A DNA stretch of 18,033 nt from Pseudomonadota bacterium (lineage in GTDB: Bacteria > Pseudomonadota > Gammaproteobacteria > Methylococcales > Methylococcaceae). Below the pieces are notes generated by a model, which searched no databases, was not told the origin of the DNA, and saw only the letters and a list, made by a program, of their open reading frames with translations. Positions 1 through 18,033 of this stretch are shown piece by piece (position 1 is the first letter of the stretch; the number at the start of each line of letters is the position of its first letter). Position numbers and translations under genes: made by a program. The DNA is taken from the NCBI GenBank assembly GCA_040753975.1, contig JBFMDC010000026.1, positions 1 to 18,033 on the forward strand. Direction: 5' to 3'.

Positions 1-249
1 CGGGCTGTCCTGCCCGGCACCCTTCGGGCCAGTGCCAATCCGCTCCCGGCGGATTGGTCATGCCGGGCTGTCCTGCCCGGCACCCTTCGGGCCAGTGCCA
101 ATCCGCTCCCGGCGGATTGGTCATGCCCGGCTGTCCTGCCGGACACCCGGCGGGCCGGTGCCAGTCCGCTCCCGGCGGATTGGTCATGCCCGGCTGTCCT
201 GCCGGACACCCGGCGGGTCGGTGCCAGTCCGCTCCCGGCGGATTGGTCC
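1..249 (+). repeat. Tandem array of a 63-bp unit, about 4 copies. The first copy is truncated by the window edge. Copies 1-2 are identical; copies 3-4 are a shared variant. Each unit can fold into three short hairpins.
   Basis: Period 63 seen directly: unit starts at 60, 123 and 186, each beginning atgccgggctgtcctgcc. The same unit recurs at 17958-18033. Per-unit inverted repeats are ccgggc/gcccgg, ggcac...gtgcc and ccaatccgc-tcccg-gcggattgg. Confidence 0.85.
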
Positions 250-264
250 GGCAATCCCTGCCGG
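248..264. repeat. Hairpin ccggca-atccc-tgccgg closing the tandem array. Its reverse complement lies at 17888-17904.
   Basis: Exact 17-nt reverse-complement match between the two window ends. Confidence 0.6.
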
Positions 265-324
265 AATGACGACCAACCCAATTTCGACAAAGCCCCACTC
301 CAGGGTTTGTCAAACTTTGCGAGT

Positions 325-343
325 CCCCCGGCTAAGCCGGGGG
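325..343. repeat. Orphan hairpin cccccggc-taa-gccggggg. Its stem is identical to the subterminal hairpins of the IS200-like element at 11262-11281 and 11842-11861. It may be a REP-like element or the footprint of an IS end.
   Basis: Perfect 8-bp stem with a 3-nt loop. The same stem sequence appears at both IS200 ends. Confidence 0.5.
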
Positions 344-539
344 CTTTCCCGCGATAAATAAGCGAAAAACCGGGCATCCGGCCTCGTCGTCGGACCTGCC
401 TCCAGCACCCCCAATGCAAATCGACGCGGACAATCGCATTGGCATAGACTGAACTCCCGGGCAGGGACCGAGTCTGGCTTGCCGGTCGAGGACTCGGTAA
501 GGCGCTCGGGGCCACCGCTTACCGCCGAGAGCCAAGCCC

Positions 540-2323: not shown

Positions 2324-2582
2324 CGAAATATCTCCTTGGCGACCGCCAGCTTAGCGCCCTGAATTCAATAATGCCTGACAGAAATTGCTGAATCGGCGGA
2401 GCCACGTTTTGACGTCAATCACAGAACATTTACGAAATCGGGTTCCGCCCCAACATTTCTTTACTTTCTGAGCGGTGGCGATTTGTAGGGGGAAGATGAT
2501 CAGCAAAGAGTCGCTACCGCGACGATGATTTGAATCGGGTTTCCGCACCCGAAGGCGGGTTACTTTCTTTTGCTCGGCCAAA

Positions 2583-2610
2583 GACCAGTTTGCCGGGAGC
2601 AAACTGGGTC
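2583..2610 (+). repeat. Hairpin GACCAGTTTGC-CGGGA-GCAAACTGGGTC. It belongs to a CGGGA-loop hairpin family together with 16412-16439 and the tandem-repeat hairpin.
   Basis: 9-bp perfect stem plus a bulged extension. Loop and GAC…GGTC flanks are shared with the hairpin at 16412-16439. Confidence 0.45.
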
Positions 2611-2839
2611 GCACGGAGTGCGCCCGAAGGGTTTGCGGCAGGAAAGCCGCAAAACAGCGTAACCAAAGAAAAGGCCGCCCGACTGCCGCGAAGGCCCCCG
2701 AGCGCCAAGGCTTTTGTCGGGGGGCGATCGAAGGGGCTTCCGCCAGCGGCTGCGGGAATGCCAATACATCATTATGTGACTCTACTTTCGAGAAAGTTAG
2801 TAGCTCCGTGAGTTCCCATGCAGAATTTTGCTAGACTTT

Positions 2840-3076
2840 CTAGATTGATGAAATTTCCCATCTCGCCTGAATCGTATCCGCAGAAAGGTCCGCTCCGCAG
2901 TCCCACTCAATAAAATACTTGCCGTTGTGAATTCGTTCAAACTCAGCCCTGTCCTTCAGCGGAGCGAAAGCTTCCGACTCGAGATATGGCTTTACATCGA
3001 ATAAACCAGCCTTGCCGTCTTCGCTCTTGATATAAAGCACGTAATTGTCTCTCGGAATTATTTCAACAATATTCAT
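2840..3076 (-). CDS. DUF2442-family small protein (78 aa). It is the downstream gene of a putative two-gene toxin-antitoxin-like module.
   Basis: Size and sequence are typical of DUF2442 (…YVLYIKSEDGKAGLFDVKPYL…GKYFIEWDCGADLSADTI). It overlaps the upstream DUF4160 gene by 4 nt (ATGA). The region is AT-rich. Confidence 0.7.
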   Translation of the reverse strand: MNIVEIIPRDNYVLYIKSEDGKAGLFDVKPYLESEAFAPLKDRAEFERIHNGKYFIEWDCGADLSADTIQARWEISSI

Positions 3077-3345
3077 TGATCAAGCCCTCGGATTGGAAAT
3101 GGTTTATTTCCGATTACGGCTAACTGCCAGTCAGCAAGTAAATCATCCTGATGTATCTCAATCCATGCAACAACCAGTTTGTGTTTCTTTAACGGAAGTT
3201 CGCCAGCCAATACGAAACCATCGTAAATTGAGTACACAGCAACGCGCCCCTGATATTCCGCATGAATATGCGGAACGCTGTGCTTATTCGTGTCATAGAA
3301 AAACATTCGAATAATAATACCATAGAACATCGATATGGTAGGCAT
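3073..3345 (-). CDS. DUF4160-family small protein (91 aa from the internal ATG at 3345; the upstream in-frame ATG at 3366 would give 98 aa). It is the upstream gene of the DUF4160/DUF2442 pair.
   Basis: MPTISMFYGIIIRMFFYDTNKHSVPHIHAEYQG is the canonical DUF4160 N-terminus. AGGAG lies upstream of the 3345 ATG. The pair co-occurs widely as an operon. Confidence 0.7.
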   Translation of the reverse strand: MPTISMFYGIIIRMFFYDTNKHSVPHIHAEYQGRVAVYSIYDGFVLAGELPLKKHKLVVAWIEIHQDDLLADWQLAVIGNKPFPIRGLDQ

Positions 3346-3381
3346 TAGAACCGTCTCTCCTGTCATACCTGATTTACTGAA

Positions 3382-3395
3382 CCGAATCTATTCGG
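3382..3395. promoter_or_regulatory. Palindrome CCGAAT-CT-ATTCGG just upstream of the DUF4160/DUF2442 pair. It is a candidate autoregulatory operator.
   Basis: Perfect 6-bp arms in an AT-rich 5' region, between the dnaE2 stop and the pair's start. Confidence 0.3.
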
Positions 3396-3453
3396 CCCCA
3401 GCATATCAAAGTAATTTTGCGATGCTTGTACATGTTATCTCACTTTTTGACGC

Positions 3454-6400
3454 TCACTGAAAATCCCTGGACTTTACCACCAACCCGTCCAGCCATTTTC
3501 CGATATCTTCCAGCCGCCCGGCGACGAGGTGCAATACGCCCTCCTCCTGCTGCACGGTGCCGGATACCGCGAGGAGGTGGGCATACAGCAGCGCACGGCG
3601 TTGGGCCTGGGCGGTGGCGGGCCAGACGATGAGGTTGATCTGGCCGGTTTCGTCTTCGATCGTGACGAAGGTGGTACCGTTGGCGGTCATGGGGCGCTGC
3701 CGGCAGACCACGAGGCCGGCAACGCGGGCGATGGCGCCGTTCCTCACCTGCCACAAAGCTTCGGCGGTGCGGAAGCCGCGGCGGTCCAGCCGCTCCCGTA
3801 GGAGACTCAACGGATGGCGGCGCAGGCTGGCGCCGGCGGCTGCATAGTCGGCGATGACGTCCTCGGCTTCGCCCGGTTTCCTCAGCAGGGGCGCGGCTTC
3901 GGCGAATTGCGGTTCGGCATAGAGCGGGGTCGGCGCTTCCACGCCGGCGGCTTCCCAGAAGGCGCGATGGCGGTGGCCGCCGAGTCCGCGCAGTGCATCG
4001 GCGGCGGCCAGCGCTTCCAGCTCGCGGCGGTCGAGCCGGGCGCGGGTGGCTAAATCCTGGACGCTTTGGAACAGGCTCTGCCGGCGGGCTTCGCTCAGGC
4101 GTTGCGCCGCAGCGGACGAGAATCCGTTGACCAGGCGCAGACCCAGCCGAAGGGCCGGAACGGGCGAGTCACCCGGCTCCAGCGCACAATCCCAGTCGCT
4201 GTGGTTGACGTCGATCGGGCGCACTTCGACGCCGTGGCGGCGGGCGTCCTGGATGAGCTGGGAGGGGCCGTAGAAGCCCATGGGCTGGCTGTTGAGGAGA
4301 GCGCAGGCGAAGGCGGCGGGATGGTGGCACTTGAGCCAGGCCGAGACGTAGGCCAGGAGGGCGAAGCTGGCGGAATGCGATTCGGGGAAGCCGTATTCGC
4401 CGAAACCCTGGATCTGGCGGTAGATCTGGCGGGCGAAGCGCTCTTCGTAGCCGCGTTCGCGCATCCCGTCCATCAGCTTCTTCTCGAACGGCTCCAGCCC
4501 GCCTTTGCGGTGCCAGGCGGCCATGGCGCGGCGCAGTTGGTCGGCCTCGCCCGGCGTGAATCCGGCGGCGACCATGGCCAGTTGCATCACCTGCTCCTGA
4601 AAGATCGGCACGCCCAGCGTCCGCTTCAGCACCTTCTCCACATCGGGGCCGGGGTAGGACACCGGCTCCAGCCCGGCCCGCCGGGTAAGATAAGGATGCA
4701 CCATGTCGCCCTGGATCGGTCCGGGCCGGACGATGGCGATCTGGATCACCAGGTCGTAGTAGTTCTTGGGCCGCAGCCTCGGCAGCATGCTCATCTGCGC
4801 CCGCGATTCCACCTGGAACACGCCGATGCTGTCGGCCCGCTGCAGCATCTCGTACACCGCCGGGTCTTCCGGGGGGATGTCGGCCAGCGCGAACGGCCGG
4901 CCCAGCCCTTCGCCCACGTAGGCCAGCGCCTTGCGGATCGCGGTCAGCATGCCCAAAGACAGGACGTCGACCTTGAGCAGCCCCAGGGACTCCAGATCGT
5001 CCTTGTCCCACTGGATCACGGTGCGCTCGGGCATGGCGGCGTTTTCCACCGGCACCCAGTGCGACAGGTCCTCGGCAGCGATGACGAAGCCGCCCACGTG
5101 CTGGGACAGGTGGCGGGGAAAACCCACCAGCATCTGCACCAGGGCCAGCAGACGCCGCACCGCCGGGTTTTCGGACGCGAGGCCGGCTTCGGCCAGGCGC
5201 TCCGGCAATGTCTCCGCGACGCCGTGGCGGTCGAGCACCCGCGCCAGGGTGTCGATCCGCGACGGTGAAAAGCCCAGGGCGCGGGCGACGTCGCGCACCG
5301 CGCTCCTCACGCGGTAGGTGATGAGGCTGGCCGCCAGCGCCGCCCGGTGGCGGCCGTACTTGCGGTAGATGTACTGGATGACCTCCTCGCGCCGCTCATG
5401 CTCGAAATCCACGTCGATGTCGGGCGGCTCGTTGCGTTCCTTGGAGATGAAGCGCTCGAACAGCAGATCGAGCCGGGCCGGATCGACCTCGGTGATGCCG
5501 AGGCAATAGCACACCGCCGAATTGGCCGCCGATCCCCTGCCCTGGCACAGGATGCCACGGCTGCGGGCGAACTGGACCACATCATGCACGGTCAGGAAGA
5601 ACGGCTCGTAGGCCATGGCGCCGATCAGTTCCAGTTCGTGCCCGACCTGCCGCCGCACCTTGTCCGGCACGCCTTCCGGCCAGCGCTTGGCCATGCCTTG
5701 CCGGGTCAGCTCGCGCAGCCAATCGATGGCCGTGTAGCCGTCCGGCACCAGCTCGGCCGGGTATTCGTAGCGCAGTTCGTCCAGCGAAAACCGGCAGCGC
5801 TCGGCGATGCGCAGCGATTCTTCGAGGAGTGGCCGCGGATAAATCCGCGCCAGGGTCTCGACGGGACGCAGATGGCGCTCGCTGTTCGGAAACAGCGCGT
5901 AGCCGAGTTCCGCCAGCGGCTTGCCGAGGCGGATGGCGGTCAGGGTGTCCTGCAGCGGCTGGCGCTCGCGGGCGTGCATATGGACGTCGTTGCAGGCGAC
6001 CAGGGGGAGGCCCAGCCGATCGCCCAGCGCCTGTAGGGCGGCCAGGCGGCGGCCGTCCTCGCCGCCCAGGAACAGCTCGGCGCCGATCCAGCAGCGGGCC
6101 GGAAACAGCCGCGCCAGCCAGGCGCCGGTTTCGGCATCGGGCGCGTCTTCCGGCAGCCAGAGCGCGAGGCAATGGTCGAGCGCGTGGGTTTCGAGCTGAT
6201 GGCGGAGCAGCCGGTACCCGCCTTTCTCCGCCGCCCGCCGGCCCAGGGTGATGAAGGCCGCGAGCTGGCCGTAGCCGCGGCGGTCGGTCGCCAGCAGCAC
6301 CAGCTTGGGACCACCCTCCAGGCGGAATTCGCTGCCGATGATGAGCTTGAAGCCGAGTTGCTTGGCCTCGGCATGGGCGCGCACCGCGCCGGCCAGCGAG

Positions 6401-6522
6401 CATTCGTCGGTGAGCGCCAGGGCCGCGTAGCCCAACCGGGCGGCTTCGGCCACCAGCTCCTTGGGATGCGAGGCCCCGCGCAGGAAGCTGAAATTGCTCA
6501 GGGCATGCAGCTCGGCGAACAT
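3454..6522 (-). CDS. dnaE2: Error-prone DNA polymerase III alpha-subunit paralogue DnaE2 (ImuC), 1022 aa.
   Basis: It begins MFAELHALSNFSFLRGASHPKELV…LALTDECSLAGAV (PHP domain) and continues with pol III alpha motifs. The ORF-track ORF reaches 7122, but the conserved N-terminus starts at the ATG at 6522, 4 nt after the imuB stop. Confidence 0.9.
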   Translation of the reverse strand: MFAELHALSNFSFLRGASHPKELVAEAARLGYAALALTDECSLAGAVRAHAEAKQLGFKLIIGSEFRLEGGPKLVLLATDRRGYGQLAAFITLGRRAAEKGGYRLLRHQLETHALDHCLALWLPEDAPDAETGAWLARLFPARCWIGAELFLGGEDGRRLAALQALGDRLGLPLVACNDVHMHARERQPLQDTLTAIRLGKPLAELGYALFPNSERHLRPVETLARIYPRPLLEESLRIAERCRFSLDELRYEYPAELVPDGYTAIDWLRELTRQGMAKRWPEGVPDKVRRQVGHELELIGAMAYEPFFLTVHDVVQFARSRGILCQGRGSAANSAVCYCLGITEVDPARLDLLFERFISKERNEPPDIDVDFEHERREEVIQYIYRKYGRHRAALAASLITYRVRSAVRDVARALGFSPSRIDTLARVLDRHGVAETLPERLAEAGLASENPAVRRLLALVQMLVGFPRHLSQHVGGFVIAAEDLSHWVPVENAAMPERTVIQWDKDDLESLGLLKVDVLSLGMLTAIRKALAYVGEGLGRPFALADIPPEDPAVYEMLQRADSIGVFQVESRAQMSMLPRLRPKNYYDLVIQIAIVRPGPIQGDMVHPYLTRRAGLEPVSYPGPDVEKVLKRTLGVPIFQEQVMQLAMVAAGFTPGEADQLRRAMAAWHRKGGLEPFEKKLMDGMRERGYEERFARQIYRQIQGFGEYGFPESHSASFALLAYVSAWLKCHHPAAFACALLNSQPMGFYGPSQLIQDARRHGVEVRPIDVNHSDWDCALEPGDSPVPALRLGLRLVNGFSSAAAQRLSEARRQSLFQSVQDLATRARLDRRELEALAAADALRGLGGHRHRAFWEAAGVEAPTPLYAEPQFAEAAPLLRKPGEAEDVIADYAAAGASLRRHPLSLLRERLDRRGFRTAEALWQVRNGAIARVAGLVVCRQRPMTANGTTFVTIEDETGQINLIVWPATAQAQRRALLYAHLLAVSGTVQQEEGVLHLVAGRLEDIGKWLDGLVVKSRDFQ

Positions 6523-6526
6523 CGCT

Positions 6527-7999
6527 TCAGCCGAACAGGCCGTGCAAATGCCAGGGCCCCGCCGTCCCGGCGTCCCGGTAGATCCACAGCCGGGCCCCGG
6601 CGCCGTCGACCGCCACATGATAATCGCGCCGCACCGGCCCGCCGTCCCACCAGCCGGTTTCGATCCGCTCGCACTCGGGCAGGATGCGGATGTCCCGCTT
6701 GGATAAAAGCCGGGGCCGAGGCAGCAGCCACAGGGGCCGGGGCGACCGCGCCGCCGCGCCGCTGCGGGGTGCGTTGCCGGATGCCGCCCGCTCCGGCCGG
6801 TGATCGGCGCGGAGCACGGGCTGGCGCAAGGCCTGCGGTCCCAGCCGCGCCTGGAGGCGGTCGAGCAGTTCGTCCCAAGCCTCCCCGCTGGCCGCCTCGG
6901 GCGTGAACAGGTCCGCCATCGGCACGGCGAACGGCTGGAGGTCGGCGCTTCGCAGCAGCAAGCCCCGGACCGGGGCGGGCAGCGCCACCCGCTCCAGCCG
7001 CTGGCGCAGCAGGGCTGCGAATTGCCCGGCCTGCCGTCCTGCCCGGCGTGGCCTTGAGCAAACCCGCGTCGGCGCGGCGCGGGCATGCCGCAGTTCGAGC
7101 TCCAGCTCCGCGGCGACGGCATCGCGGCTCCGCAGGAAAGCCTCGAATTCCGCCAGCAAAACTTCGACCAGCGGGAAGACCTGGGTCAGGTCTTCGGTTT
7201 CCATCGCCAGTTCTCGCTCGGCGCGGAATCGGGGCGGGGCATGGAACTGCCGCAGCGGCTGGGGCCGGCTGCCCGCGGCCTCGTCCAGCCGCCGCAGCAG
7301 ATCGCGGCCATAGCGGCGCGCCAGACCGTCCCGCGGCATGCGCCAGAGATCGCGCAGCACCTGCAGTCCGGCACGGGCAAGACGGCCGGTGAGCTTATCG
7401 TCGATGCCCAGCGCGGCGACGGGCAGATCGCCCAGCGCGGAACGCAGCGCCTCAGCCTCGAGCACCGGCGCCGGGAACCCTGCCTGCGCCATCAGCCAGG
7501 CCGCCGCGGGCGTCGGCGCCAGACCGCATTGCACCGCGTGGCCGTCCGCCGCACGGCAGGCCGTTTCGGCCAGCGCCTCCGGCCCGCCGAACAGCCGCAG
7601 GCTGCCGCGTACCTCCAGTTGGAGGGTGGCCGGGAAGTCCAGGCTGATCCAAGGGGTGAAGCGCAGGCAGCGTTCCGCCAGCCGGGAAAGGGCCCGCCGC
7701 TCGGCCTCCGGGTCCCGGTTCACCGCCGTCAGCCCAGGACAGAGCGCCTGAGCTTCGGCCAAGGCCATGCCGGGGACGACACCCTGTGCTTCGGCTGCCG
7801 CCGAAGCACTGTGAACCAGGAGCCGGCCGCCACCGGCTTCGGTGACGGCGATCGGTTCGGACGCCGCGGCCCCTAAAGCCTCCAGCGCAAGCGCGGGGAA
7901 ATGCAGCGCCAGCCAGAGCGGCGCGGCCTCGGCCGGGGGGACCTCGCATGGCGGTTCCGCCGGGAGAGAAGGGGAATGGTAAGCGCGCGCGAGGGACAT
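6527..7999 (-). CDS. imuB: ImuB, a Y-family polymerase-like protein of the mutagenesis cassette, 490 aa.
   Basis: …LWLALHFPALALEALG… is the typical ImuB N-terminal motif. It sits between imuA and dnaE2. It has a Pro-rich leader of about 25 aa before the conserved start, with no alternative in-frame ATG. Confidence 0.85.
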   Translation of the reverse strand: MSLARAYHSPSLPAEPPCEVPPAEAAPLWLALHFPALALEALGAAASEPIAVTEAGGGRLLVHSASAAAEAQGVVPGMALAEAQALCPGLTAVNRDPEAERRALSRLAERCLRFTPWISLDFPATLQLEVRGSLRLFGGPEALAETACRAADGHAVQCGLAPTPAAAWLMAQAGFPAPVLEAEALRSALGDLPVAALGIDDKLTGRLARAGLQVLRDLWRMPRDGLARRYGRDLLRRLDEAAGSRPQPLRQFHAPPRFRAERELAMETEDLTQVFPLVEVLLAEFEAFLRSRDAVAAELELELRHARAAPTRVCSRPRRAGRQAGQFAALLRQRLERVALPAPVRGLLLRSADLQPFAVPMADLFTPEAASGEAWDELLDRLQARLGPQALRQPVLRADHRPERAASGNAPRSGAAARSPRPLWLLPRPRLLSKRDIRILPECERIETGWWDGGPVRRDYHVAVDGAGARLWIYRDAGTAGPWHLHGLFG

Positions 8000-8005
8000 G
8001 GCGCC

Positions 8006-8626
8006 CTACAGCACCAAGCGGACGCGCGCCCCGCCGAATCCGCCGCGGGCCTTGAGTATCCGCAGTTCCAGCCCGCCTTCGCAGACTCCGAGGCTCAGGC
8101 GCAACGCCGCCGTACCGCCGGCAGCACCGCCGGAGAACAGCATGCCGAGCGCGCCCCCTTCCCCCGCCGCCAGCTGCAGGCGGCGCCAGGCGGAGGGCGG
8201 CAGCGTCCGTGGCCAAGCCAGCACCAGGCCGGTCTCGGGATGGCGCAGCACCAGTTCCAGCGTCCAGCTCAAGTCCCGCTTGTGGTCCGCCACCGCCACC
8301 ACCAGCATCCGCCCGATCTCGACCCCGGCCTGGACCAGCGCCGGCGCGTAGGGCTCGAACGGCGGCGCGACCCACACCAGCCGGCGCCCATCCCCGGCGA
8401 TGCGCCGCATCAGCGGCAGTAGCAGCCGCAGTTCGCCGATGCCGTGGCTCGGCGCGACGATCTCGGTCAGGGCGCCCGCCGGCCAGCCGCCGCCCGGCAG
8501 CACCGCATCCAGCGCCGCATGGCCGCTGGGGACGACCGGCGCCCGCCAGGCTGCCGGCCGGCGCCCGCGCCAGACCCGGGGGTCGCGGTCCAGCAGCTCG
8601 GCCAGTGCCTCCACCTTCCCGGCCAT
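8006..8626 (-). CDS. imuA: ImuA (SulA/RecA-fold cell-division-inhibitor-like protein), 206 aa.
   Basis: The conserved start MAGKVEALAELLDRD…ALDAVLPGGGWPAGALTEI lies at position 106 of the longer ORF-track ORF (8006..8941). Its ATG overlaps the lexA stop by 1 nt (TGATG). Confidence 0.8.
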   Translation of the reverse strand: MAGKVEALAELLDRDPRVWRGRRPAAWRAPVVPSGHAALDAVLPGGGWPAGALTEIVAPSHGIGELRLLLPLMRRIAGDGRRLVWVAPPFEPYAPALVQAGVEIGRMLVVAVADHKRDLSWTLELVLRHPETGLVLAWPRTLPPSAWRRLQLAAGEGGALGMLFSGGAAGGTAALRLSLGVCEGGLELRILKARGGFGGARVRLVL

Positions 8627-9234
8627 CAGCCCACCCGGGTGCGGATCACGCCGACCACGATGCCTTCGATGCAAAGCGGCTGGCGTTCCAGATCGACGGC
8701 GATGACGGAAAACTCGGGATTGGCGGGCTCCAGATAGGCCACGGCACCCTCCAGCCGCAGGCGCTTCACGGTCACCTCGTCGTGGAGGCGCGCCACCACG
8801 ATCTGGCCGGAGCGGGCCTCCTGCGCCTGCTGCACCACCAGCAGATCGCCGTCGATGATGCCGGCGTCGCGCATGCTCATGCCCTGGACCCGCAGCAGAT
8901 AATCGCCCTTGTGCCCGAACAGCTCCGGCCCCAGCCGGCAATGGCGCTCGACCTGGGCCTCGGTCATCAGCGGCCGTCCCGCCGCGACCTTGCCGATCAG
9001 AGGGAGGTCCATGTCCTCGGCCTTGGCGAGCAGGCGGATGCCGCGCGAGGCGGAAGGGATCAGCTCGATCGCCCCCTTGCGCTCCAAAGCGCGCAACTGC
9101 TCCCGAACCCCATGAGGGGAGCTGACCCCGATGGCGCGGGCGATCTCGGCGATGGTGGGAGGAAAACCTTCGTCTTCCACGCTGCGGCGGATGCAGTCCA
9201 GGATTTCGCGTTGGCGGATGGTCAGGGGCTTCAT
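8626..9234 (-). CDS. lexA: LexA repressor, 202 aa from the second ATG. The first in-frame ATG is at 9243.
   Basis: The protein aligns end to end with E. coli LexA (MKPLTIRQREILD…; cleavage site VAAG; catalytic GMSMRDAGI Ser and VTVKRL Lys). Confidence 0.9.
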   Translation of the reverse strand: MKPLTIRQREILDCIRRSVEDEGFPPTIAEIARAIGVSSPHGVREQLRALERKGAIELIPSASRGIRLLAKAEDMDLPLIGKVAAGRPLMTEAQVERHCRLGPELFGHKGDYLLRVQGMSMRDAGIIDGDLLVVQQAQEARSGQIVVARLHDEVTVKRLRLEGAVAYLEPANPEFSVIAVDLERQPLCIEGIVVGVIRTRVG

Positions 9235-9248
9235 GCTCGGCATACGAA

Positions 9249-11149: not shown

Positions 11150-11875
11150 CGTCGGGGTCTCTCAAGAAACACGCCGGGCCGCCCCAAGTGTTTCTTGCCC
11201 ATTGATGGGTCAAAAACGGAGCGCAGCGGGTTTTTGGGGGTGGGCTAACTCATTGAGGTAAGCCCCCGGCTTTGGCGGGGGACTCACCGGGGTTTGACCT
11301 GTACGGCGGTCGTTGTGAACCTGAAATCTCGACCAAGAGATGGAGGTTCACGATGAAAGAGTACCAGAGTCTTTCCCCCACCAGATGGGGTTGTAAGTAT
11401 CACGTAGTGTTTATCCCGAAGCGGCGGAAGAAACAGATTTTTGGAGCGGTCAAGCGGCATCTTGGAGAGATATTTCATGAACTTGCCGGGCACAAAGAGT
11501 CGAAAATCGTGGCGGGCCACTTGATGGGGGATCACGTACACATGTGCATCAGCATACCGCCGAAGTGCGCGGTTTCGAGCGTGGTGGGCTAGATCAAGGG
11601 CAAGAGCGCGATCCAAATCGCCCGGCAATTTGGTGGTCGGCGGAGGAATTTCACCGGGGAGAATTTTTGGGCCAGGGGCTACTTCGTTTCCACGGTGGGC
11701 TTGGATGAGGCCATGGTTCGGGCATATATCCGCCGACAGGAACAGGAGGATGAGCGCCACGATCAGATGAAGCTTGGCCTGTAGGTGACCGCCTTGGGCG
11801 GCTCATGATTTTACGGCGCCTTTGAGGCGCTCACCCAATAAGCCCCCGGCTTTGCCGGGGGTGATTTAACTATTC
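11150..11875 (+). mobile_element. IS200/IS605-family insertion sequence, about 0.7 kb. Its boundaries are approximate.
   Basis: An HUH/Y1 tnpA is flanked by near-identical subterminal hairpins: gcccccggctttggcggggg at 11262-11281 and gcccccggctttgccggggg at 11842-11861. An additional left-end palindrome caagaaacac…gtgtttcttg lies at 11163-11197, as in IS200. There are no terminal inverted repeats, as expected for this family. Confidence 0.7.
11353..11784 (+). pseudogene. tnpA: IS200-type transposase TnpA interrupted by an in-frame TAG at 11590-11592. The stop falls between the HUH motif and the catalytic Tyr.
   Basis: MKEYQSLSPTRWGCKYHVVFIPKRRK…GDHVHMCISIPPKCAVSSVVG-TAG-IKGKSAIQIARQFGG…ENFWARGYFVSTVG…RAYIRRQ is read in a single frame. 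GGAGG lies 6 nt upstream of the ATG. The TAG sits where IS200 TnpA has a conserved Tyr (GYLKGKS). Confidence 0.75.
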
Positions 11876-12352
11876 GTTCCGCCCTTTTGTCCTCAAACTT
11901 CCCAGCGTCAGACGCAACACCGGACCCATCGGGCCTTGCCCCACCGAAGGTGCGGGTAAAGGTGCCTCCTCCTCTCGCCCCAAGGCCAGCATTTCCTTGT
12001 GTTCTTCCAGCAAGTGATGCAACAGCTTTAACGACAAAGAAGGCGGTAAAGCACCTCCGATGACGTCGATGAGGAATTGGCTGTGATCGCGCACCACCAC
12101 GTATTCTCTCGGCCAGGGCGCCGGGTAGTCCGCCAAGAGATCATTCATTTTCTCGATGTTGCCCCGTTCTTCTTCGGCGATATGGCCGAAGAGCCGCTGT
12201 TTGACCTCGGGGGAAATCGCCGTATCCCCCAGCAGTTCCAAGAGCATTTCAATATGTTCCCGAACGTTGTGGGCGATGCGGGACGCCTGCCCTCGAAGGG
12301 CCTCATCGTTCATCGCCTGTATCAGGCCTCCTTGCGGCAGCTTTGCGGTCAT
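11870..12352 (-). CDS. Encapsulin cargo protein. It is a putative hemerythrin-like (HHE, HxxxE x2) or diiron ferritin-like protein with a C-terminal family-1 targeting peptide. It is about 160 aa.
   Basis: The C-terminus …GPVLRLTLGSLRTKGRNE matches the family-1 targeting-peptide pattern (LxxGSLxx). HxxxE motifs are present (GHIAEEE, HHLLEEH). The ATG at 12352 overlaps the encapsulin stop (ATGA). Alternative starts are at 12373 and 12313. Confidence 0.6.
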   Translation of the reverse strand: MTAKLPQGGLIQAMNDEALRGQASRIAHNVREHIEMLLELLGDTAISPEVKQRLFGHIAEEERGNIEKMNDLLADYPAPWPREYVVVRDHSQFLIDVIGGALPPSLSLKLLHHLLEEHKEMLALGREEEAPLPAPSVGQGPMGPVLRLTLGSLRTKGRNE

Positions 12353-13197
12353 GGCCCGGTTTCCAAGGTACAAATGGCAGTGGGGCGCTTGATCCGGAGC
12401 ACGATGCTTTCATAGATCCTGAAGCCATAATTCATATTTCTTGGCCCCAGATAGGCGATACTGACATCCTCTGCGATCGCCAGATCGAAATTCTCAGGAC
12501 CACAGGAAACCACCACGGCCTGCTCGGGCTTCAGCACCGGCGACTGATAAACCCCATCCTCGCAGAGCTTGGTGATGGAATCGATCTCGATCACCGGCAT
12601 ATCCTTCTCGGTCTTCAGGAGTGCGGCGTAGAGTTGAGGCGAGAGCACCGCGGCGTAAGGCCGATGGTGATGGGCATCGAGCAGGGCCAAGGTGGCTTCG
12701 CGGATATTCACGTAGGCTTTGCCGAACTGATTCCAATCGAGCATTGGGGTCGTCAGCCTTTTTTCGGCATTCAAGAGGCCTTCCATGCCCAATTCCCTGT
12801 GGCCATGGTAGATCAGATCCTCTTCGCGATGGGCCAGGAAATGCGCCGCCCGCACGGCCCGGCTCACATCCAGGGGAGCGTCCAGGGCGCGGCTCAATTC
12901 CACGTCCCGCCAATGAAAGATGAAGTCCTTGTAGATCAACGGGATCCTTTTATAGACCTCGGATTCGGCCTGTATGACCCGGGCGTCCCGTCCGCCTTCC
13001 AGATCGACCTCCGCCAGAGCATCCACCCCGTAGGTCTCGTACGAGACCGTTTCCAAGCCCGCACCCAGCGGCCCGTATACGTCAATGAACCGCCTCGCCG
13101 TCAGCGTCCGCTGCATTTCTTTCAGGATTTCGGATTCCAGGCGCTGGCGTTGTGACTCGCTGAGTGGATACTCGACATTGCGTTGATAGCTTCGCAT
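12349..13197 (-). CDS. Family-1 encapsulin shell protein (HK97 fold; the family historically labelled linocin-M18 bacteriocin), 282 aa.
   Basis: It aligns along its length with T. maritima encapsulin: FIDVYGPLG~FVDVEGPYG, IPLIYKDFIFHWRDVELS~LPLIELRATFTLDLWEL, and C-terminal LRIKRPTAICTLE. GC is lower than in the flanking core genes. Confidence 0.85.
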   Translation of the reverse strand: MRSYQRNVEYPLSESQRQRLESEILKEMQRTLTARRFIDVYGPLGAGLETVSYETYGVDALAEVDLEGGRDARVIQAESEVYKRIPLIYKDFIFHWRDVELSRALDAPLDVSRAVRAAHFLAHREEDLIYHGHRELGMEGLLNAEKRLTTPMLDWNQFGKAYVNIREATLALLDAHHHRPYAAVLSPQLYAALLKTEKDMPVIEIDSITKLCEDGVYQSPVLKPEQAVVVSCGPENFDLAIAEDVSIAYLGPRNMNYGFRIYESIVLRIKRPTAICTLETGP

Positions 13198-13385: not shown

Positions 13386-13462
13386 CGTTGACGCGGATGC
13401 AAAGCGTTCGCATTTGCGAAATACCCCCCTGCTTCATCGTCGATTCATCCCGCTTCCACGCC

Positions 13463-14308
13463 ATGGCTTTGATTCGCATGATTCCGGCGCGCTCCTGGCG
13501 CACGCTGCTGCTGAGCGGTGTCAGCGCGACGGTTGGCGTGCGGGTCATGGCTTTCGTCAATGAGCGCATGATCCAGGGGCCGGACATCGACCGGGCCTCG
13601 CTGATGGAGTTCGCCGTTCTTCTGGTCGCGATGTTCGCGGTCGCTTCCGCCGCGCAAATGATGATGACCCGCTTGGGTCATCGGCTGGTCTACGAGCTCC
13701 GCCGCTCGCTCGTGAAGCGCATACTCGACACCGACTGCGAGCGGCTCGAACACGTGGGCCCGGCGCGTATCCTCGCCAGCCTCAGCAGCGATACCGGCCA
13801 CATCACCTCCGCCTTCATCAGCCTGCCGAACGCGGTGTATGGAACCGTGTTGACCTCGGGCGCGCTCGGCTACCTCGCCTGGCTTTCGCTGCCGCTGTTC
13901 TGGGCGATCGCCGGATGGCTGAGCCTGGCGGTCCTGATCGGCTGGCTGTTGCTGGTCCGCAAGGCGAAAATGGAACAGGGGAAGTTGCTGGATCTTAAGC
14001 TCTCCCAGGGACAACGGAAGCGACTGGCCTTGCTGCTCGCCGCGCTCGAGGAACGGCCGATTCTGATTCTGGACGAATGGGCGGCGGACCAGGACCCGTC
14101 CTTCCGCGAAACTTTCTACTTCGAACTGCTGCCGAAGCTTAAGGCTACCGGAACGACGATCTTCGCGATCACGCATGATGATCGGTACTTCCACCTGGCT
14201 GACCGGCAGTTGAAGATGGACGGCGGACACCTCACGGAAATGGCGATCCCGCAGGCGATGACCGCCGCGGGGGTGCGGAGCGGTGCAGCTTCGGTGGCTT
14301 CCAGGTGA
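13463..14308 (+). pseudogene. YojI-like ABC exporter (cyclic-peptide/microcin exporter family) carrying an in-frame internal deletion. The N-terminal transmembrane part is joined directly to the ABC signature, Walker B and H-loop. The Walker A and Q-loop region (about 260 aa) is missing.
   Basis: …TRLGHRLVYELRRSLVKRILDTDCERLEH… parallels the YojI N-terminus. The sequence jumps from …LLLVRKAKMEQGKLLDLK straight to LSQGQRKRLALLLAALEERPILILDEWAADQDP…TIFAITHDDRYFHLADR. No GxxGxGKS/T motif occurs anywhere. Total length is 281 aa; full-length family members are about 550 aa. Confidence 0.6.
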
Positions 14309-16397: not shown

Positions 16398-16411
16398 CTT
16401 CTCCCGCTGGG

Positions 16412-16439
16412 ACAAAACCGCCGGGAGCGGTTTTGGTCG
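16412..16439 (+). repeat. Hairpin GACAAAACCGC-CGGGA-GCGGTTTTGGTC, a member of the CGGGA-loop hairpin family.
   Basis: It has the same architecture as the hairpin at 2583-2610: same loop and same GAC…GGTC flanks, with compensatory stem changes. It is close to the reverse complement of the tandem-repeat hairpin (ccaatccgc-cggga-gcggattgg), again with compensatory differences. Confidence 0.5.
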
Positions 16440-16505
16440 AGTGGAGCTCGCCCGAAGGGTTCCGGGCTGGACGGCCCGGAAACAAAAGGTGGCCCGGAGG
16501 GCCGG

Positions 16506-17723
16506 ATGAGGGATAGAGACCGCACGGTTCCGGGGCACAATTCGAGGGCCGCGGGACCGTGCGGTCTCTCCCTGTTCGCCATGGTGCTGCTCCTTGCCGG
16601 CTGCCAGCACGCGACGGCGCCCGGGCCGGCTACCCCGGCGCGCGCCCCAAGCGACGCCTCGGCGCCGCCGCCCGCGACGGGCGACACCCGCTACGTTTTC
16701 GGGTGGGGCGAGCTGCCCGCGATCCTCGCCCAGCCGCGCGGTGGCAGCACGCGCGGGGCTCCGGTCACACTCGCACCGGGCCGGGCGCTACCGTTGCCGG
16801 AGATCGCCGCCGCGTCCGACGAATTCATCCAGGACCGGGCCGCGATCTTGGCGCTCGCCGGCGATTACAAGGTGAGTTTCCACTTCATGGAGTCGCTCGG
16901 GCTTGCACCCGACTACCAACCCACCAGGCCTTACCACTCGTGGGCCACTGAGCGCGTCGATGTGCTGGAAGACCGGGGGCGCTTCATCAGCCTTCAGCAC
17001 ACGCTCTTGATGTTTTTCAAAAACGCCGATGGCACGGTATCCGGGCCGGAGGTCGCGAAGCACTGGCGACAGGACTGGACCTACGAGGATACCGACCTCT
17101 ACACCTTCCGCGGCGCTTCCACCTGGTCGCGGCGCCGCGTCCCGGCCGCCGAAGCGGCCGGGCGCTGGTCGCTGGCCGTGTTTCAGGTCGACGATTCACC
17201 GCGCTACGAAGCACTCGGCCGCTGGGAGCACCGCGGCAACATTTCCGCCTGGACCAGCGAACGCGCCTGGCGTCCGCTCCCGCGTCGCGAACACACCGTG
17301 CGCCAGGACTACGACGTCATGGAGGGCATTCACCGCATCCTCCTCACCCCCACCGGCTGGCTCCATGAGCAGAACAACTTAAAACGCGTCGCGGGCGAAA
17401 CCGGCGAAGCGGCGCGCTTCGTCGGGGCGGAAATTGGCCTGGACCGCTACGAACGCATTACCGCGCCTAGTCTCGTTGCCGCGGACGAATATTGGAAGAA
17501 AACCGCCCGCTATTGGGCGGTGGTCCGCCGCGCCTGGGCCGAAGTGCTGGCGCGCCATGAGCGTTTCACGCTACGCACGGAAGTGGGCGGCAAAAAGCTT
17601 TTCGAGGAGCACCTGGCCTACGCCGAGAAGCTCGCGTCCGGCACGCCGTTCGACGCCGCTGACGCGGAAGGCCAGGCGCGAGCGACCCTCCGGAAATTCG
17701 TCACGACCAAGAAGCCCCCCTGA
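16506..17723 (+). CDS. Putative lipoprotein of unknown function (405 aa), probably co-transcribed with or functionally linked to the cytochrome c-FTR1 gene.
   Basis: GGAGG lies 5 nt upstream of the ATG. The signal region ends in the lipobox LLLAGC. The long ORF-track ORF (15636..17723) extends upstream through the FTR1 gene in another frame and is not credible. I recognise no characterised family confidently. Confidence 0.6.
   Translation: MRDRDRTVPGHNSRAAGPCGLSLFAMVLLLAGCQHATAPGPATPARAPSDASAPPPATGDTRYVFGWGELPAILAQPRGGSTRGAPVTLAPGRALPLPEIAAASDEFIQDRAAILALAGDYKVSFHFMESLGLAPDYQPTRPYHSWATERVDVLEDRGRFISLQHTLLMFFKNADGTVSGPEVAKHWRQDWTYEDTDLYTFRGASTWSRRRVPAAEAAGRWSLAVFQVDDSPRYEALGRWEHRGNISAWTSERAWRPLPRREHTVRQDYDVMEGIHRILLTPTGWLHEQNNLKRVAGETGEAARFVGAEIGLDRYERITAPSLVAADEYWKKTARYWAVVRRAWAEVLARHERFTLRTEVGGKKLFEEHLAYAEKLASGTPFDAADAEGQARATLRKFVTTKKPP
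16515..16569. other. 14-bp perfect inverted repeat AGAGACCGCACGGT…ACCGTGCGGTCTCT with a 27-nt spacer. It spans codons 4-21 of the lipoprotein gene.
   Basis: Read directly. The GCGGTC/GACCGC motif also forms the small hairpin at 16374-16388. Confidence 0.6.
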
Positions 17724-17806
17724 CGCTTCGACAATCCGCTGTGGCTCGTTCTCATCGAGCCGGCGGCGATGACCTTGACATCGATGAGCAGGGGCGAAGT
17801 AACGAT

Positions 17807-17854
17807 CCACCGGCAAAGCCGGTGGCTTTCGACGGCTGGCCCCTCCAAGGGGCC
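17807..17854 (+). terminator. Two back-to-back GC-rich hairpins downstream of the lipoprotein gene: ccaccggc-aaa-gccggtgg, then ggcccct-cca-aggggcc. They may be a terminator or REP-like.
   Basis: Perfect 8-bp and 7-bp stems. The first is followed by CTTTC, a weak U-tract. Confidence 0.35.
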
Positions 17855-17887
17855 TGACCGCCGTCGGGCAAAAGCCAAGTCGTCGCC

Positions 17888-17904
17888 CCGGCAGGGATTG
17901 CCGG
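17888..17904. repeat. Hairpin ccggca-gggat-tgccgg, the reverse complement of 248-264. It lies 54 nt upstream of the right-end tandem repeat.
   Basis: Exact reverse-complement match to 248-264. Confidence 0.6.
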
Positions 17905-17957
17905 GATCCAGTGGCCACGGATGGCTGCGACCTCACACCTCCCTGTGAGCTGGATTC

Positions 17958-18033
17958 ATGCCGGGCTGTCCTGCCCGGCACCCTTCGGGCCAGTGCCAAT
18001 CCGCTCCCGGCGGATTGGTCATGCCGGGCTGTC
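17958..18033 (+). repeat. The same 63-bp tandem-repeat unit as at 1-249, about 1.2 copies (units 1-2 type), truncated by the window edge.
   Basis: Identical to 60-122. The last 9 nt of the window equal its first 9 nt. Confidence 0.85.

Follow-up and report, generated by a model that had tools for sequence, protein, structure and literature searches.

The 63-nt tandem repeat which bounds the analyzed DNA on both sides (the whole stretch of 18,033 nt is hereafter referred to as the window) is very probably a short form of a structured module related to the small RNA RrB of Escherichia coli. The explanation that best accounts for the observations overall, to which we assign a probability of roughly 0.6, combines membership in this module family with carriage of the array by a mobile composite and a possible decoy function of a putative minus-strand transcript.

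The first-pass annotation had described a 63-nt tandem repeat at both window ends, with three inverted repeats per unit, and comparison of the units in register bears this description out. Four units are located at the left end (1-63, 64-126, 127-189, and 190-252), where TRF called a single array at 3-248 (period 63, 3.9 copies, 95% matches, score 394), and one more is found at the right end. Units 1 and 2 are identical to each other and to the unit at 17962-18024, and the terminal 72 nt of the window match exactly (1-72 and 17962-18033), confirming that the window is bounded by the repeat on both sides. Since the contig begins within the array, the left array comprises at least four units in all and may include further type-1 units. 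The covariance model R1, built from an alignment of family members (A1, see below), recovered all window copies as well as 147 matches in the listed genome loci, and places four family loci within the 18-kb window, including 2 diverged single copies, oriented opposite to the array, which were absent from the annotation:

1-252, minus strand: four short-form 63-nt RrB-like modules in tandem (TRF, register, and R1); the unit reads GA-CCAATCC-GCCGGGAGC-GGATTGG-CACTG-GCCCGAAGGGT-GCCGGGC-AGGACA-GCCCGGC-ATGA on this strand
17954-18033, minus strand: second array copy, consisting of the first unit and 9 nt of the next and ending at the contig end (R1 match at 17954-18021, 69.8 bits)
2582-2658, plus strand: long-form single module with an extra middle hairpin, cgcac-GGA-gtgcg (R1, 71.6 bits, E 4.5e-16; direct repeat)
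16410-16486, plus strand: long-form single module between the FTR1/cytochrome c gene and the DUF6607 gene (R1, 70.5 bits, E 8.3e-16; direct/inverted repeats)

Within the left array, the minus-strand matches of R1 cover positions 56-123 (68.8 bits), 182-249 (47.1 bits), 124-181 (25.5 bits), and 1-55 (29.0 bits). A weak R1 match at 11589-11636, beside the Y1 transposase (E 0.025), appears to be spurious. Other identities of the repeat were also set aside. ORF 32-361 covers the array, but the gene calls shown for a contig from a near-identical strain (JGI contig Ga0484001_0003359, 27,954 nt) include none at this place and the family is extragenic, arguing against a coding repeat; the units are arranged head-to-tail, without spacers, arguing against a CRISPR array.

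Read on the minus strand, the unit consists of three hairpins (stem-GCC GGGA GC-stem, CCC-GAA-GGG, and stem-C AGGACA G-stem) and contains 2 GGA loops per 63 nt, approximately 37 nt apart; hairpins flanking the array add three GGA motifs to its minus-strand total. The single copies have loops like those of the array but different stems. On the array's minus strand, the loops are GCC-GGGA-GC in the first hairpin, GGA in the optional middle hairpin, and AGGA(A/C)A in the last, with CCC-GAA-GGG between. The module at 2582-2658 adjoins a low-GC islet (2700-3450; approximately 48% versus approximately 65% elsewhere) carrying a DUF4160/DUF2442 gene pair, and a long near-perfect hairpin (16502-16580), which draws spurious mir-Ro6-3 Rfam matches on both strands, lies between the module at 16410-16486 and the start of the DUF6607 gene.

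Units 3 and 4 are changed relative to units 1 and 2 at positions 2, 15, 17, 23, 24, 31, and 38, and unit 4 has further changes at positions 29, 60, and 61. The annotation had interpreted such differences as compensatory, which is correct for one pair: the change from G2:C15 to C2:G15, turning the hairpin CGGGC/GCCCG into CCGGC/GCCGG, is the sole true compensatory change, whereas the change at position 17 (ggcac...gtgcc to ggaca...gtgcc) is not compensatory, leaving C·A on plus and U·G on minus. At positions 23-24, TT is replaced by GG in the middle-hairpin loop, elsewhere conserved throughout the family, and units 3-4 have thereby lost the GAA typical of that loop. The substitution at position 38 (A38G), which reads as G·U on plus but as A·C on minus, had been taken, as a G·U-compatible change, to indicate a transcribed plus strand. 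This argument fails because there is one wobble per strand, that at position 38 favoring plus and that at position 17 favoring minus. Furthermore, the near-identical strain has A at position 38 and carries 2 units at this locus. Unit number and the position-38 substitution are thus strain polymorphisms. The array has expanded and contracted, probably through unequal recombination or slippage between units, as in the difference between at least four units here and 2 in that strain.

To delineate the family, a pattern derived from three window copies (GCCGGGAGC, a gap of 10-30 nt, and GCCCGAAGGGT) was searched for in a collection of species-representative genomes, in which it matched more than 116 genomic stretches (a lower bound). 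Complementarity of the flanking stem was observed in approximately 109 of 126 individual matches among those listed, nearly all of which belong to Gammaproteobacteria and span many orders. The listed hosts include Enterobacterales, Pseudomonas and its relatives, Saccharospirillum, Halomonas, Stenotrophomonas, Pseudoxanthomonas, Lysobacteraceae, and Rhodanobacteraceae, as well as Methylobacter, Methylumidiphilus, Thioalkalivibrio, Thiotrichaceae, Methylophaga, Arenicellales, Salinisphaeraceae, and Microbulbifer. Among the matches listed, the closest relatives of the repeat come from Methylobacter and Methylumidiphilus MAGs (L045, L018, L085, and L094).

Alignment A1 comprises 102 family members from public genomes, taken from the matches listed, with 2 loops fixed by the discovery pattern. 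In this alignment, 93.3% of the stem cells are paired, compared to 38-44% with slid partners, and cells with a double change number 456, compared to 142 ± 8 after shuffling (0 of 500 shuffles as high), with both-side changes in 13 of the 20 pairs. The 2 variable stems covary strongly, whereas the loops are fixed. Stem covariation in 102 relatives thus upholds the annotation's view that the structure is under selection and that the repeat is not a neutral satellite. As a check independent of the loop pattern, metagenomes were scanned with stem A alone; GGA in the last loop was kept in 66 of 67 unique full-length members of this set. G(A/C)A is retained in the middle hairpin, the stem of which covaries (CTC..GAG, CAC..GTG, GCGC..GCGC), and the structural alignment with the E. 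coli rrB homologues held after the discovery pattern was relaxed. Stems are the same among copies of one genome but different between genomes, suggesting recent within-genome amplification under a common structural rule. Tandem arrays are present in other taxa too (L021, L065, L111, and L060), with periods of 63-64, 69, 75, and 80 nt. For instance, an array of approximately six units in Stenotrophomonas acidaminiphila (L065:6640-7150) runs up to a terminator that also serves a convergent gene, and four units in a Lysobacteraceae MAG (L111:1340-1680) lie in GGA orientation within a 3'UTR, between the stop codon and a strong terminator. Overall, the family occurs in three settings, namely, as dispersed copies, in tandem arrays, and linked to tRNA or 5S genes.

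A scan of the whole window against Rfam 15 (E up to 1) yielded no match in the arrays; the only Rfam matches elsewhere in the window, to miRNA and xrRNA families, were rejected as spurious. The RrA/B/F sRNAs and tRNA-linked repeats of E. coli and, in general, CsrA decoys are already known, and no description of the wider family was found in a limited literature search. The spread across Gammaproteobacteria, the tandem 63-nt short form, the inverted-repeat/IS200-like carriage, and the tRNA-shaped scaffolds appear to be undescribed in the literature covered.

The enterobacterial members L031 and L119 correspond to the segment of the rRNA operon between terminators T1 and T2, and the window units align with both in A1, with intact units scoring 69-72 bits with R1. 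When searched with blastn, the enterobacterial copy was found in 4,095 of 5,426 complete E. coli genomes, at a median of 2 places each, by rrf and tRNA-Thr. The window unit itself (56-123, minus strand) matched the same places in 3,944 of the 5,426 genomes (E 7e-5 in 28 Gb of E. coli sequence, query coverage 93%); the match examined is in sense orientation and lies 83 nt past the final 5S gene of an rrnD-type operon. In E. coli, rrA, rrB, and rrF encode the sRNAs RrA, RrB, and RrF, which are classed among the "tRNA-linked repeats" (TLR) and co-transcribed with rRNA through T1 read-through (Stenum et al. 2021, PMC8144298). Binding of the short form of RrB to CsrA has been demonstrated by MS2 pull-down and EMSA (KD of approximately 100 nM) and is abolished by mutation of three GGA motifs, 2 of which are in hairpin loops; RrB also binds Hfq weakly and has modest phenotypes, and conservation of RrA/RrB/RrF has been reported only within Enterobacteriales (PMC8144298). 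Judging from the blastn position, the transcribed strand of rrA/rrB/rrF, the sole relatives with experimental data, corresponds to the minus strand of the window (PMC8144298).

The window units have the same core as RrA/RrB/RrF (GCC-GGGA-GC stem, CCCG(A/G)AGGG hairpin, and CAGGAC stem), with approximately 75% blastn identity over 93% of the unit and a gap at the extra middle hairpin of E. coli. However, whereas the E. coli copies are single, reside between T1 and T2 downstream of 5S, possess the middle hairpin, and end in an 18-nt copy of the 5S 3' end, the window units are tandem, lack the middle hairpin, and are located between protein-coding genes in a mobile-element-like composite. The 3' ends of RrA/RrB/RrF repeat the terminal 18-19 nt of the stable RNA that precedes them, a repeat of which the window has only an AATCC remnant. 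The GGA loops (RrB stem-loops 2-4), which are the CsrA-binding determinants of RrB, are present in the window units at the level of sequence. The tRNA scan and Rfam identified no tRNA or rRNA genes in the window, and the arrays are not between rRNA terminators. Identity with the E. coli "box C" repeat seems less likely, the E. coli matches being rRNA-operon trailers present at a median of 2 per genome.

The genomic context of the family was assessed with a crude gene caller (ORF length and codon-position composition), making the orientation counts approximate. Among the matches listed, which merge into 130 loci, 35 loci are convergent, 22 are tandem in sense and 29 in antisense, and 8 are divergent; the other 36 were unclassified, 29 being near a locus end and 7 within a called ORF. 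When the 7 sense and 14 antisense tandem intergenic loci of the metagenome set are included, the GGA strand shows, with approximate gene calls, no preference for being sense to the neighboring genes (29 sense versus 43 antisense). Dispersed copies favor the 3' ends of genes, as REP/BIME do. In A1, both stems contain G·U and A·C mismatches in nearly equal proportions, and a strand test based on these counts revealed no asymmetry, a result as compatible with DNA-level or neutral decay as with RNA constraint.

Among the matches listed, a tRNA gene is located within 500 nt of 21 of the 130 loci and a 5S gene adjoins 3. In ten stable-RNA-linked loci, the module lies downstream of the RNA gene and shares its strand, and in seven of these the spacing is nearly constant (69-75 nt). 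The linked copies examined have a terminator hairpin and a GGAUGA-GAACC..GGUUC-GA hairpin ahead of the module and, behind it, AAUCC and a duplicate of the final 18-20 nt of the tRNA, with the flanks making an acceptor-like closing helix. In the tRNA/5S-linked members (L010:1283-2100, L056:6060-6340, L072:5280-5580, L109:3340-3700, L115:1000-1290, and L083:1-520), the module is found approximately 70 nt past the stable RNA gene, after a T-arm-like half, and looks as if GGA hairpins had replaced the interior of a tRNA; L010 has four tandem units after tRNA-Gln. The stable-RNA-linked copies probably represent the expressed, selected form of the module, and the dispersed copies are probably passengers for the most part rather than regulators.

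The array itself likely sits in a mobile composite, the parts of which, together with the resident insertion sequence, are as follows:

300-362, minus strand: outer end resembling an IS200-like left end, with a hairpin at 325-343 and a conserved GTTTGAC (A3: 11236-11330 and L149; inverted repeats; blastn)
248-273, minus strand: terminal inverted repeat GTCGTCATTCCGGCAGGGATTGCCGG, 26 nt, 88% complementary to 17879-17904, with the hairpin CCGGC-AGGGAU-UGCCGG and a GGA-containing loop
17932-17949, no strand assigned: small hairpin CTCACAcctcccTGTGAG, with a GGGAGG loop on the minus strand (sequence)
17914-17925, no strand assigned: small hairpin GCCACGGATGGC, with GGA on the plus strand (sequence)
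17879-17904, plus strand: second terminal inverted repeat GTCGTCGCCCCGGCAGGGATTGCCGG (repeat search)
17803-17856, minus strand: outer end resembling an IS200-like right end, with hairpins at 17807-17825 and 17838-17854 (A4: 11775-11880, L002, and L149)
11245-11870, plus strand: resident IS200-like element with hairpins at both ends (Pfam PF01797 Y1_Tnp, E 7e-20)

In minus-strand order, the IS-left-like end (362-300) and the inverted repeat at 273-248 are followed by the array, AAUCC, a CUCACA-GGGAGG-UGUGAG hairpin, the inverted repeat at 17904-17879, and the IS-right-like end (17856-17803). Both small hairpins listed above fall between the array and the latter inverted repeat. The 26-nt inverted repeats also flank modules in metagenome loci L130, L152, L161 (twice), and L183, where the place of these small hairpins is taken by one that has a different stem and a GGA loop on the same strand. 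In the near-identical strain, leader and array are present at 2 loci, one between the mog-like gene and brkB, the other following the DUF6607 gene, with leaders 96% identical, and the leader, one unit, and the tail recur at an unrelated locus of another metagenome (L149, 960-1345), where the unit is inverted relative to its flanks. An independent rearrangement, or inversion of the DNA between short GGATTC/GAATCC repeats, could account for this orientation. Given its presence at 2 or more loci here and at an unrelated locus elsewhere, the composite behaves as a non-autonomous mobile element, approximately 400-600 nt long, which would carry the array between its 26-nt inverted repeats.

In common with the non-autonomous, MITE- or PATE-like derivatives of IS200/IS605 elements, the composite has subterminal hairpins, occupies several loci, and encodes no internal transposase; it differs from them in its cargo, an array of RrB-like modules with 26-nt inverted repeats of its own. 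No tetranucleotide is common to the flanks of the three composite copies and the IS copy. Since the ends are approximately 70-75% similar to IS200-like ends and there is no clear target-site signature, we only infer that the composite may be mobilized by a Y1 transposase. The tnpA gene of the resident element (11353-11784) contains an in-frame TAG (11590-11592) and is a pseudogene; a 79-aa gene call in the JGI and Logan contigs implies the same stop. An inverted repeat, TTTCGACAAAG-N14-TTTGTCAAAC, at approximately 281-315 lies inside the tail resembling the IS200-like left end; its GTTTGAC is conserved in the IS copy and L149 and may represent a −35 element or a site bound by a protein. Just outside the composite is a hairpin resembling a terminator and followed by a T-run (366-385, minus strand; GAGGCCGGATGCCCGGTTTT TCGCTTATTT), with no minus-strand gene upstream.

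Alternative explanations concern the ends of the contig, the strand, and the function of the repeat. The exact 72-nt overlap of the ends could signify a circular 17.96-kb replicon or an excised circle in which the repeat is a junction, origin, or iteron region, and the composites are in direct orientation, such that recombination could in principle excise one. We consider a circle highly improbable, given the chromosomal gene content (dnaE2-imuB-imuA-lexA, encapsulin, FTR1, and brkB), without replication or mobilization genes, and the contig from the near-identical strain, which leaves the left array into the mog-like and Pyr_redox_2 genes, indicating that the window contig is not circular, and also ends inside the right array. 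The connection of the 2 ends, for which the annotation had recommended a check, is thus not a circle junction, with leader and array lying at 2 different chromosomal loci; rather, the contig breaks inside the array because an array of variable length sits in a repeated mobile composite. The annotation's own proposal, a structured RNA transcribed from the plus strand, would display the loops UGUCCU, UUCG, and UCCC, for instance, as an anti-Shine-Dalgarno or C-rich-loop sRNA. The mog-like gene (upstream, L002) and brkB (downstream) have the same orientation as the array, so that read-through would produce plus-strand RNA, and the fold energy is equally strong on this strand (z −8.1). Yet the single G·U-compatible change on the plus strand is offset by an equal wobble for the minus strand and is polymorphic between strains, the polarity relative to transcription is reversed in both single copies of the window and in the E. 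coli homologues, and no Rfam family matches. A plus-strand RNA therefore appears very unlikely.

A possible alternative to the RrB-like, potentially transcribed module, although one we would back only tentatively, is that the repeats are purely selfish or structural DNA of REP/BIME or MITE type, with hairpins acting as single-stranded or cruciform DNA for transposase, gyrase, or other proteins, and with GGA loops inherited from a founder, devoid of an RNA function in this genome. The lack of orientation bias relative to genes, with convergent contexts enriched (35) and divergent ones depleted (8), agrees with this possibility, as do the uniformity of stems within but not between genomes, the near parity of G·U and A·C mismatches, the terminal inverted repeats and IS200-like ends around the array, the copy number differences between strains, and the inversion of the L149 unit relative to its flanks. 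However, it is the loops rather than the stems that are conserved across bacterial orders, and the extra hairpins keep same-strand GGA loops while their stems differ. Furthermore, expression and CsrA binding are documented for the E. coli members (PMC8144298), and the tRNA/5S-linked copies are mostly in sense at a fixed spacing of approximately 70 nt. For classical REP elements in particular, both a RAYT gene and a GTAG head were sought in the window, and neither was found; the only Y1 transposase of the window is the IS200-type tnpA pseudogene, so a RAYT/REP link was discarded. Like REP/BIME/REPINs, the family is extragenic, palindromic, clustered, homogeneous within genomes, and found near gene 3' ends with no orientation bias, but it differs from them in having units of 63-85 nt with three or four hairpins and in conserving loops, not stems, across orders.

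Returning to the RrB-like module on a mobile composite, the minus strand of the array, which is the sense direction of the IS-like ends, would, if transcribed, offer 2 GGA loops per unit. CsrA dimers bridge sites 10-63 nt apart. The GGA spacing of approximately 37 nt would suit one CsrA/RsmA dimer per unit, and the array would accordingly act as a small CsrB-like decoy. Consensus scans revealed no sigma-70-type promoter near the arrays on either strand and no downstream terminator, nor was a GacA box found near the arrays within three mismatches, and the minus (GGA) strand of the array is antisense to both flanking genes in the window. For these reasons, we consider a CsrA-decoy role of the putative minus-strand transcript, predicted from its motifs, plausible but on the doubtful side. 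A more elaborate scenario, in which the arrays are working CsrA/RsmA decoys on mobile elements, the module having arisen as a tRNA-shaped trailer and been copied since, with array length tuning decoy capacity, is unlikely. Were this scenario true, the trailers of tRNA and rRNA operons would have coupled CsrA activity to stable-RNA synthesis, and the copied arrays would extend to lineages with few or no known Csr/Rsm sponge RNAs.

The array resembles CsrB/CsrC/RsmB/RsmX/Y/Z and RsmU in its repeated GGA-loop hairpins with a spacing compatible with a CsrA dimer, a likeness that would be functional only if the minus strand is transcribed. Unlike the CsrB/Rsm RNAs, however, it has no sequence or Rfam match to them, no GacA/UvrY box, and no evident promoter or terminator, and is multi-copy, mobile, and variable in length. 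RsmU of Xanthomonas is described as a 3'UTR-derived CsrA-sequestering RNA (PMC7694677) and, as far as can be judged from its primer-defined ends, is not obviously RrB-like.

The E. coli module, which lies in the rrnB T1-T2 terminator cassette of many cloning vectors, has been described as an sRNA restricted to Enterobacteriales, whereas the evidence presented here suggests a family distributed across many gammaproteobacterial orders. The combination of conserved GGA loops and freely covarying stems offers a comparative handle on its function, and the family provides candidate CsrA/RsmA decoys for Methylococcales-like, Xanthomonadales, and other genomes. Even if most copies are inert, they would constitute a clear example in bacteria of a structured-RNA module propagated as a dispersed repeat, and such arrays explain a recurrent type of assembly break.

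No exact-sequence record was found for the product of the brkB-like gene, and comparison of the window proteins with the retrieved family loci gave a single, distant imuB/lexA match. Elsewhere in the window, a lexA-imuA-imuB-dnaE2 SOS mutagenesis cassette occupies 3454-9243 on the minus strand. An ABC-transporter-like ORF (13388-14308), with a weak ABC_membrane match only, appears truncated or fused and may be a pseudogene. An encapsulin gene (Linocin_M18) is followed by a downstream cargo gene (11870-13197), the product of which has no Pfam match and ends in a C-terminus (...LTLGSL...) resembling an encapsulin targeting peptide.
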